A DNA stretch of 353 nucleotides from Escherichia coli (GTDB taxonomy: Bacteria; Pseudomonadota; Gammaproteobacteria; Enterobacterales; Enterobacteriaceae): assembly GCF_003334385.1 (NCBI RefSeq), contig NZ_QOWN01000194.1. One strand, given 5' to 3'. This document shows positions 1 through 353 of the stretch, piece by piece; the first letter of the stretch is position 1; the number at the start of each line of letters is the position of its first letter. Position numbers: made by a program.

Positions 1-353
1 TGGTCACCCACGTACTGGGAGACAATCACCGGCAGCCCCTGGAAGGAGCCACCCAGCAGGGTCATGTCCGGGTATTCTTTCTGACCCAGCGCATTTTTAC
101 GCATGGACAGCGCCAGGGCATTGGTGCTGGACATCAGCCAGACAGCACCAGTGGGCTGCAGGTTTGCTGCCACAAACTGTCCAAACGCCGCCTCTGCATC
201 CGCATCCGGGTTACCGCTTGATGCCGTGCCCTTCACATCATGGGTGATGGACGCCGGGGAGACATCTGCCACCGCCGCTTTTTTCGGGTCCACAAAGTCT
301 GTATCCAGACGCGCCACCACCGCTTCCGCCAGCGCATTACGGACCAGTGCATC

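Follow-up and report, generated by a model that had tools for sequence, protein, structure and literature searches.

The A6 tract in a protease–capsid fusion gene of Escherichia coli prophages reads as two ordinary lysine codons

The stretch of E. coli DNA analysed in this study (353 nucleotides in total, hereafter the window) is open from end to end in a single reading frame on the minus strand. This frame belongs to a gene whose product carries a prohead protease fused to an HK97-type major capsid protein. In the locus designated L001, the full-length gene occupies positions 3678-5615 and encodes 645 amino acids, and the window corresponds to positions 5001-5353. Two features of the window are needed at the outset, and their positions are given in window coordinates.

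1-353, minus strand: internal fragment of the prohead-protease/HK97-type major capsid fusion gene (codons 442-558 plus 2 nucleotides, of 645 amino acids), recognized by its open frame, nucleotide matches, Pfam and PHROG.
279-284, minus strand: run of six A residues forming codons AAA AAA for Lys465-Lys466 within the Phage_capsid domain (nucleotides 1393-1398 of the full gene), read directly from the sequence.

The window is 100% identical to part of a prophage in E. coli 2012EL-2448 (NZ_CP027586.1), where the gene is annotated as ‘phage major capsid protein’, and it shares 98.6% nucleotide identity with ORF56 of the Stx1 phage BP-4795, with protein identity over the window reaching 100%. The window also matches 92 phage records, most of which are Stx-converting by name and the rest of which are Escherichia or Enterobacteria phages. 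Complete E. coli genomes yielded 1,254 matching records, which come from 1,249 of 5,426 genomes and reach at most seven copies per genome. Within the fusion polypeptide, Pfam locates a Peptidase_S78 domain (PF04586) at residues 48-152 (i-E = 5.4e-08) and a Phage_capsid domain (PF05065) at residues 386-635 (i-E = 1.1e-13). The PHROG 617 family (major head protein) spans the entire 645-amino-acid protein (E = 1e-261), PHROG 80 (head maturation protease) corresponds to residues 1-281, and a comparison with the PDB gives a weak match to the major capsid protein 9d9w.

Within a head-gene cluster of the standard kind, the gene follows the large terminase and precedes the portal; the order is TerS, TerL, capsid fusion, a small ORF, portal, head-tail connector, head closure and tail genes. 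It is thus the prohead-protease/scaffold/HK97-type capsid fusion of a BP-4795-like lambdoid (Shiga-toxin-type) prophage that is common in E. coli. The fusion architecture is already known, having been noted for BP-4795 and for Pseudomonas phage PAJU2. BP-4795 ORF56 has the same combination of Peptidase_S78 and Phage_capsid domains as the window gene, as does PAJU2 ORF003 (‘prohead protease fused capsid protein’), which is about 55% identical in protein sequence. PAJU2 differs at the site of interest, where it encodes Ala-Lys (GCC AAG) rather than the Lys-Lys (AAA AAA) of the window clade. Three PHROG families of ‘unknown function’ match only fragments of the capsid fusion, namely phrog_6538 (residues 453-645), phrog_26508 (502-645) and phrog_13361 (2-128), and these families probably derive from genes called in pieces in genomes that are frameshifted or contain errors.

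On the plus strand, the tract appears as TTTTTT between C278 and C285, and it is the sole A6 or T6 run of the window. The first-pass annotation had read it as six A residues on the coding strand that encode consecutive lysines, and both the frame and the full gene confirm this. The tract lies in the codons CCG AAA AAA GCG (Pro-Lys-Lys-Ala) or, with one more codon on each side, GAC CCG AAA AAA GCG GCG (Asp-Pro-Lys-Lys-Ala-Ala). We also considered whether the fused protease might cut at the Lys-Lys pair during maturation. This is unlikely, given that residues 465-466 lie deep within Phage_capsid (386-635) and not at the scaffold/capsid junction.

When compared with dinucleotide shuffles of the window (60% GC), which take no account of coding, an A6 run is slightly surprising (shuffles average 0.06 runs, and 10 of 200 contain at least one). 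The surrounding 10.3-kb locus contains 23 A6 or T6 matches versus 6 expected. Lysine is encoded by AAA and AAG in a ratio of 17:12 in the capsid gene and 68:39 in the locus, and AAAAAA spells 5 of the 12 Lys-Lys pairs across the genes of the locus, four of these five being in the small-terminase gene. Because AAA is the commoner codon and AAAAAA is used for 5 of 12 such pairs, the A6 run is unremarkable once the Lys-Lys dipeptide is given.

The consequences of a length change were evaluated by constructing A7 (-1) and A5 (+1) versions of the full-length gene and translating them. Each shifted frame ends at a stop codon that lies within the window.

238-240, minus strand: TGA that closes the -1 frame (equivalent to an A7 mRNA), 13 codons past the tract, from translation of the full gene.
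233-235, minus strand: TGA that closes the +1 frame (equivalent to an A5 mRNA), 14 codons past the tract, from translation of the full gene.

The -1 product would be 479 amino acids long and end in ...KKSGGGRCLPGVHHP, and the +1 product would be 480 amino acids long and end in ...KKRRWQMSPRRPSPMM. The stop codon at 233-235 is also the one that terminates a 39-amino-acid mechanical ORF at positions 233-352 of the minus strand. Either shifted product would be cut short by approximately 165 residues at the C-terminal end of the capsid domain, losing more than half of Phage_capsid, and neither change opens a long alternative frame in the full-length gene. Prompt stops in both shifted frames had been named in the first-pass annotation as an outcome that would speak against a functional tract, and this is what the full gene exhibits. 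Accordingly, the tract was rejected as a recoding site, since the A7 and A5 frames both stop within 14 codons.

Tract length was then compared among close relatives. A scan of IMG/VR with fixed flanking sequences, between which 5-12 bases were permitted, recovered 50 loci, all of which carry exactly seven bases in the gap. When L001 and a second locus (L002) are included in the tabulation, GAAAAAA is found in 51 copies and CGCCAAG in one divergent relative from IMG/VR. A second scan of IMG/VR, with degenerate flanks and any AAR AAR combination permitted, found AAAAAA in 129 of 129 copies that represent seven local haplotypes.

Complete E. coli genomes were searched with BLAST queries of 34-36 nucleotides carrying A5, A6 or A7, such that a true length variant scores 100% identity and an A6 copy scores 97%. 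The A5 and A7 counts refer to the two dominant flank haplotypes and to the best copy per record. For the first haplotype (GCG GCG), exact matches number 523 records for the A6 control, none for A7 and one for A5. For the second (GCC GCA), there are two exact records for A7 and two for A5, and 915 records in both searches fall at 95-99% identity, which is the band of an exact A6 copy (~97%); judging by this identity band, the 915 records would be A6 copies. Altogether, A5 or A7 occurs in 5 of ~1,250 records (~2,920 copies), or ~0.2% of copies. The invariant tract length that the first-pass annotation had also proposed as evidence against a function is therefore essentially what is observed, with every one of the IMG/VR copies carrying A6 and only these five E. 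coli records differing.

The five exceptional genomes are E. coli AUSMDU00014361 (L060), PNUSAE008512 (L065), PNUSAE008406 (L066), NADC 5570/86-24/6565 (L067) and 644-PT8 (L068). The assemblies concerned are GCF_009650035.1, GCF_025399135.1, GCF_025399115.1, GCF_001806265.1 and GCF_001650295.1. All are RefSeq ‘complete’ genomes in which nearly every gene of the prophage head region is annotated ‘frameshifted’. The capsid gene carries this annotation in all five records, and neighbouring genes, including those for terminase, portal and connector, are flagged as well. Relative to L001, the five stretches contain between 16 and ~70 additional indels of 1-2 nucleotides within 5-8 kb. Four of the stretches have most of these indels at other homopolymers, and in AUSMDU00014361 several are located outside any run. 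An A5 run at L001:5256 is altered in four of the five variants, and a T7 run at 3601 and a G7 run at 8296 are altered in 644-PT8 and others.

Homopolymer runs are subject to raised indel rates, and the existence of A5 and A7 forms in five complete-genome records with a ‘frameshifted’ gene could be seen to favour a mutational switch or hot spot, in which replication slippage at the tract toggles the capsid gene (phase variation) or focuses prophage decay there. However, the variants make up only a minute fraction of the ~2,920 copies, none of the 129 IMG/VR copies varies, and known contingency tracts are longer, typically at least 8 nucleotides. Many other homopolymers within the same 5-8 kb are also changed in each variant. 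Because so many homopolymer indels occur together, the five records point to assembly error or general decay rather than to a switch at the tract; error is favoured, most likely from long-read assemblies left unpolished where prophage DNA is repeated. Phase variation was rejected as a candidate because all five variants lie amid numerous other homopolymer indels, and we consider a switch or hot spot at this site to be very improbable.

A second alternative, which we consider somewhat less probable still, is that the tract supports low-level recoding. Either a -1 slip of tRNA-Lys on the tetramer A_AA.A or the gain or loss of one A by the polymerase would yield a little of a 479- or 480-amino-acid protein, comprising protease, scaffold and part of the capsid domain, that is useful in assembly. 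An in-phase A_AA.A tetramer does exist at the tract, and some IS elements employ such tetramers (PMC4066793). Also, potyviruses use the sequence GAAAAAA for programmed slippage (PMC4552492, PMC5027478), and AAA AAA is unchanged in all of the 129 close copies. If frameshifting of either kind did occur, the shifted-frame peptides SGGGRCLPGVHHP and RRWQMSPRRPSPMM would be expected in proheads or lysates.

Several observations argue against such recoding. The tetramer is the only in-phase slippery motif at the tract. An in-phase heptamer of the form X_XXZ_ZZN is absent, as the frame CCG_AAA_AAA_GCG provides G_AAA_AAA, whose first position does not match, and therefore the P-site tRNA-Lys could not re-pair. 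Sharma et al. measured every tetramer of this kind in E. coli, and A_AA.A ranked lowest among the six with a response to a strong pseudoknot; tetramers that lack a stimulator gave approximately background frameshifting (PMC4066793). No stimulator was recognized at the capsid tract. The 121 nucleotides from the tract onward fold less stably than their shuffled counterparts (z = +1.81, with 197 of 200 shuffles at least as stable), and an Rfam search returned no match at E <= 1; a stimulatory RNA was rejected on these grounds. Likewise, the Shine-Dalgarno-like cores AGGA, GGAG and GAGG are absent, by reading of the sequence, from the 17 nucleotides upstream of the tract, ACAGACTTTGTGGACCCG. These results support the remark in the first-pass annotation that there is no functional sign at the tract, since neither a downstream structure nor a slippery heptamer nor a long alternative frame is present. 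Moreover, the shifted frames close without a conserved extension, and the truncated product forfeits more than half of Phage_capsid.

Slippage by the polymerase fares no better. Lambdoid phages rely on the host polymerase for transcription of their late genes, from which we infer that E. coli RNA polymerase would transcribe the tract. This enzyme requires runs of at least seven T residues, and still more A residues, to slip, and it exhibits no measurable slippage on A6 (PMC6260861). Selection against homopolymer runs becomes evident in many genomes only from about 9 nucleotides (PMC1088944). A tract of six falls short of the length needed for slippage by E. coli RNA polymerase as judged from these thresholds (PMC6260861, PMC1088944), and so the generic concern about slippage does not apply. 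The potyviral precedent involves a different enzyme, in that slippage there is carried out by the viral RNA-dependent RNA polymerase.

The strict retention of AAA AAA deserves separate comment. AAG is absent from the tract in all 129 close copies although neighbouring codons vary synonymously across the seven haplotypes, which could hint at a constraint acting on the nucleotide sequence. We judge this invariance not to be significant, because the clade is at most ~6% diverged, lysine can be spelled in only one other way at each codon, and AAA is the preferred form. A more elaborate proposal takes the strictly kept GAAAAAA as support for low-level polymerase or ribosome slippage during late-gene expression, producing a truncated protease-scaffold protein of 479-480 amino acids that acts in prohead assembly as an analogue of the potyviral GA6 system. 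This version is less credible again, and we give it almost no weight.

Comparisons with more distant homologues also bear on any recoding function. A tblastn search of phage genomes found relatives with identities down to 38%, and the A6 tract is absent from homologues at or below 81% protein identity (over the 117-amino-acid window). At the two tract codons, a copy in E. coli A34, with 81% protein identity over this same span, has GAC AAG (Asp-Lys), and the Moraxella phage Mcat7 has GAT AAG (Asp-Lys). PAJU2, an IMG/VR relative and Stenotrophomonas SOVA965 have GCC AAG (Ala-Lys), and Ralstonia and Burkholderia phages carry lysine at neither position. Deep conservation of the tract was consequently rejected. 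Among these sequences, the first lysine, and hence the A6 run, is peculiar to the shallow E. coli clade.

Two of these homologues have disrupted genes of their own. In SOVA965, the capsid gene is annotated as two overlapping CDS (at L054:1490-1560), with a frame break at GACTCTTCATC (GAC TC TTC ATC). Homopolymer slippage was rejected as the cause, as the break falls outside any run, four codons upstream of the site that corresponds to the tract; it is probably a sequencing error or mutation unrelated to A6. The E. coli A34 copy (L058:168-2118, 78% nucleotide identity) is annotated as frameshifted, and its frame changes occur near amino acids 108-121 and 282-288, away from the tract position at which it carries GAC AAG.

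A final alternative, that the T6 run on the plus strand is the U-tail of an antisense intrinsic terminator, draws on its placement after GC-rich sequence and is effectively refuted: a scan of both strands showed no terminator-like stem followed by a T-tail and no promoter-like site, plus-strand positions 235-290 do not fold with unusual stability (z = +0.68, with 148 of 200 shuffles as stable), and divergent homologues lack the T run.

We conclude that the A6 tract is almost certainly a by-product of coding that consists of two ordinary lysine codons and has no role in recoding, slippage, phase variation or regulation. Two adjacent lysines of the HK97-type capsid domain are both written AAA, the commoner lysine codon in the gene and in E. 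coli, and ribosomes would read the resulting hexanucleotide in frame as they do every other pair of codons. At most, the run would be slightly more prone to indels during replication or sequencing, and such indels would be expected to inactivate the capsid gene.

Consistent with this conclusion, the tract fits no class of recoding or phase-variation site that we considered, as a defining feature of each is missing. The potyviral P3N-PIPO site is identical over the heptanucleotide GAAAAAA (PMC4552492, PMC5027478), but slippage there opens an overlapping ORF that is conserved throughout the family. The capsid tract, by contrast, is presumably transcribed by a host polymerase that needs longer runs, leads to stops after 13-14 codons, and is lost in relatives. 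Bacterial -1 frameshift sites, such as A_AAA_AAG of E. coli dnaX and A_AAA_AAG/A of IS1 and IS3, resemble the tract in having an A-rich run of lysine codons and an in-phase A_AA.A, whereas the capsid gene has G_AAA_AAA with no hairpin or pseudoknot, no upstream Shine-Dalgarno sequence and no functional -1 product. Bacterial sites of transcriptional slippage (A9 in Thermus dnaX, T9 in Shigella mxiE and A9 in IS elements) likewise place an A or T homopolymer in coding sequence, but they use ~9 nucleotides rather than 6, and slippage in the capsid gene neither restores nor creates an ORF. Homopolymer contingency loci share with the tract a coding run whose length change would turn the gene off, yet the capsid tract exhibits no genuine length polymorphism in ~2,920 E. 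coli and 129 IMG/VR copies.

A homopolymer of a different character was encountered in the portal region of the same prophage, 2.1 kb downstream of the window. Here, a G5 run (L001:7172-7176) lies 12 nucleotides before an ATGA overlap (the site as a whole being 7172-7191). With the G5 allele there are two ORFs, at 5827-7191 (454 amino acids, portal) and 7188-8411 (407 amino acids), and with the G6 allele of relatives there is one fused ORF of 2,436-2,760 nucleotides. Neither allele is rare, as IMG/VR contains 49 G5 and 27 G6 copies. In complete E. coli genomes, 231 records match G5 exactly and 12 match G6 exactly, and the identity bands suggest that G6 copies whose flanks vary probably add several hundred more. 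The allele mostly tracks the flank haplotype, although both alleles occur in 3 of 37 haplotypes of 150 nucleotides. A single portal profile, PHROG 2271 (859 positions), covers both ORFs. PGAP calls the G5 form ‘frameshifted’, and BP-4795 carries G5. Moreover, GGGGGA could serve as a Shine-Dalgarno sequence for the downstream ATG of the second ORF. This second ORF also contains a tandem repeat of 162 bp (54 amino acids) at L001:7413-7945, with 3.3 copies and 90% identity. The copy number varies, such that fused ORFs measure 2,436, 2,598 or 2,760 nucleotides, and the BP-4795 sequence is 162 bp longer.

These findings remove one candidate from consideration, in that an A6 run encoding Lys-Lys in the capsid gene of an E. 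coli prophage calls for no particular explanation. They also advise caution with the few ‘frameshifted’ capsid pseudogenes carrying A5 or A7 in RefSeq complete genomes, which are most likely long-read homopolymer errors and not biology. The split-or-fused polymorphism created by G5 and G6 in the portal region is a more worthwhile subject than the A6 tract.
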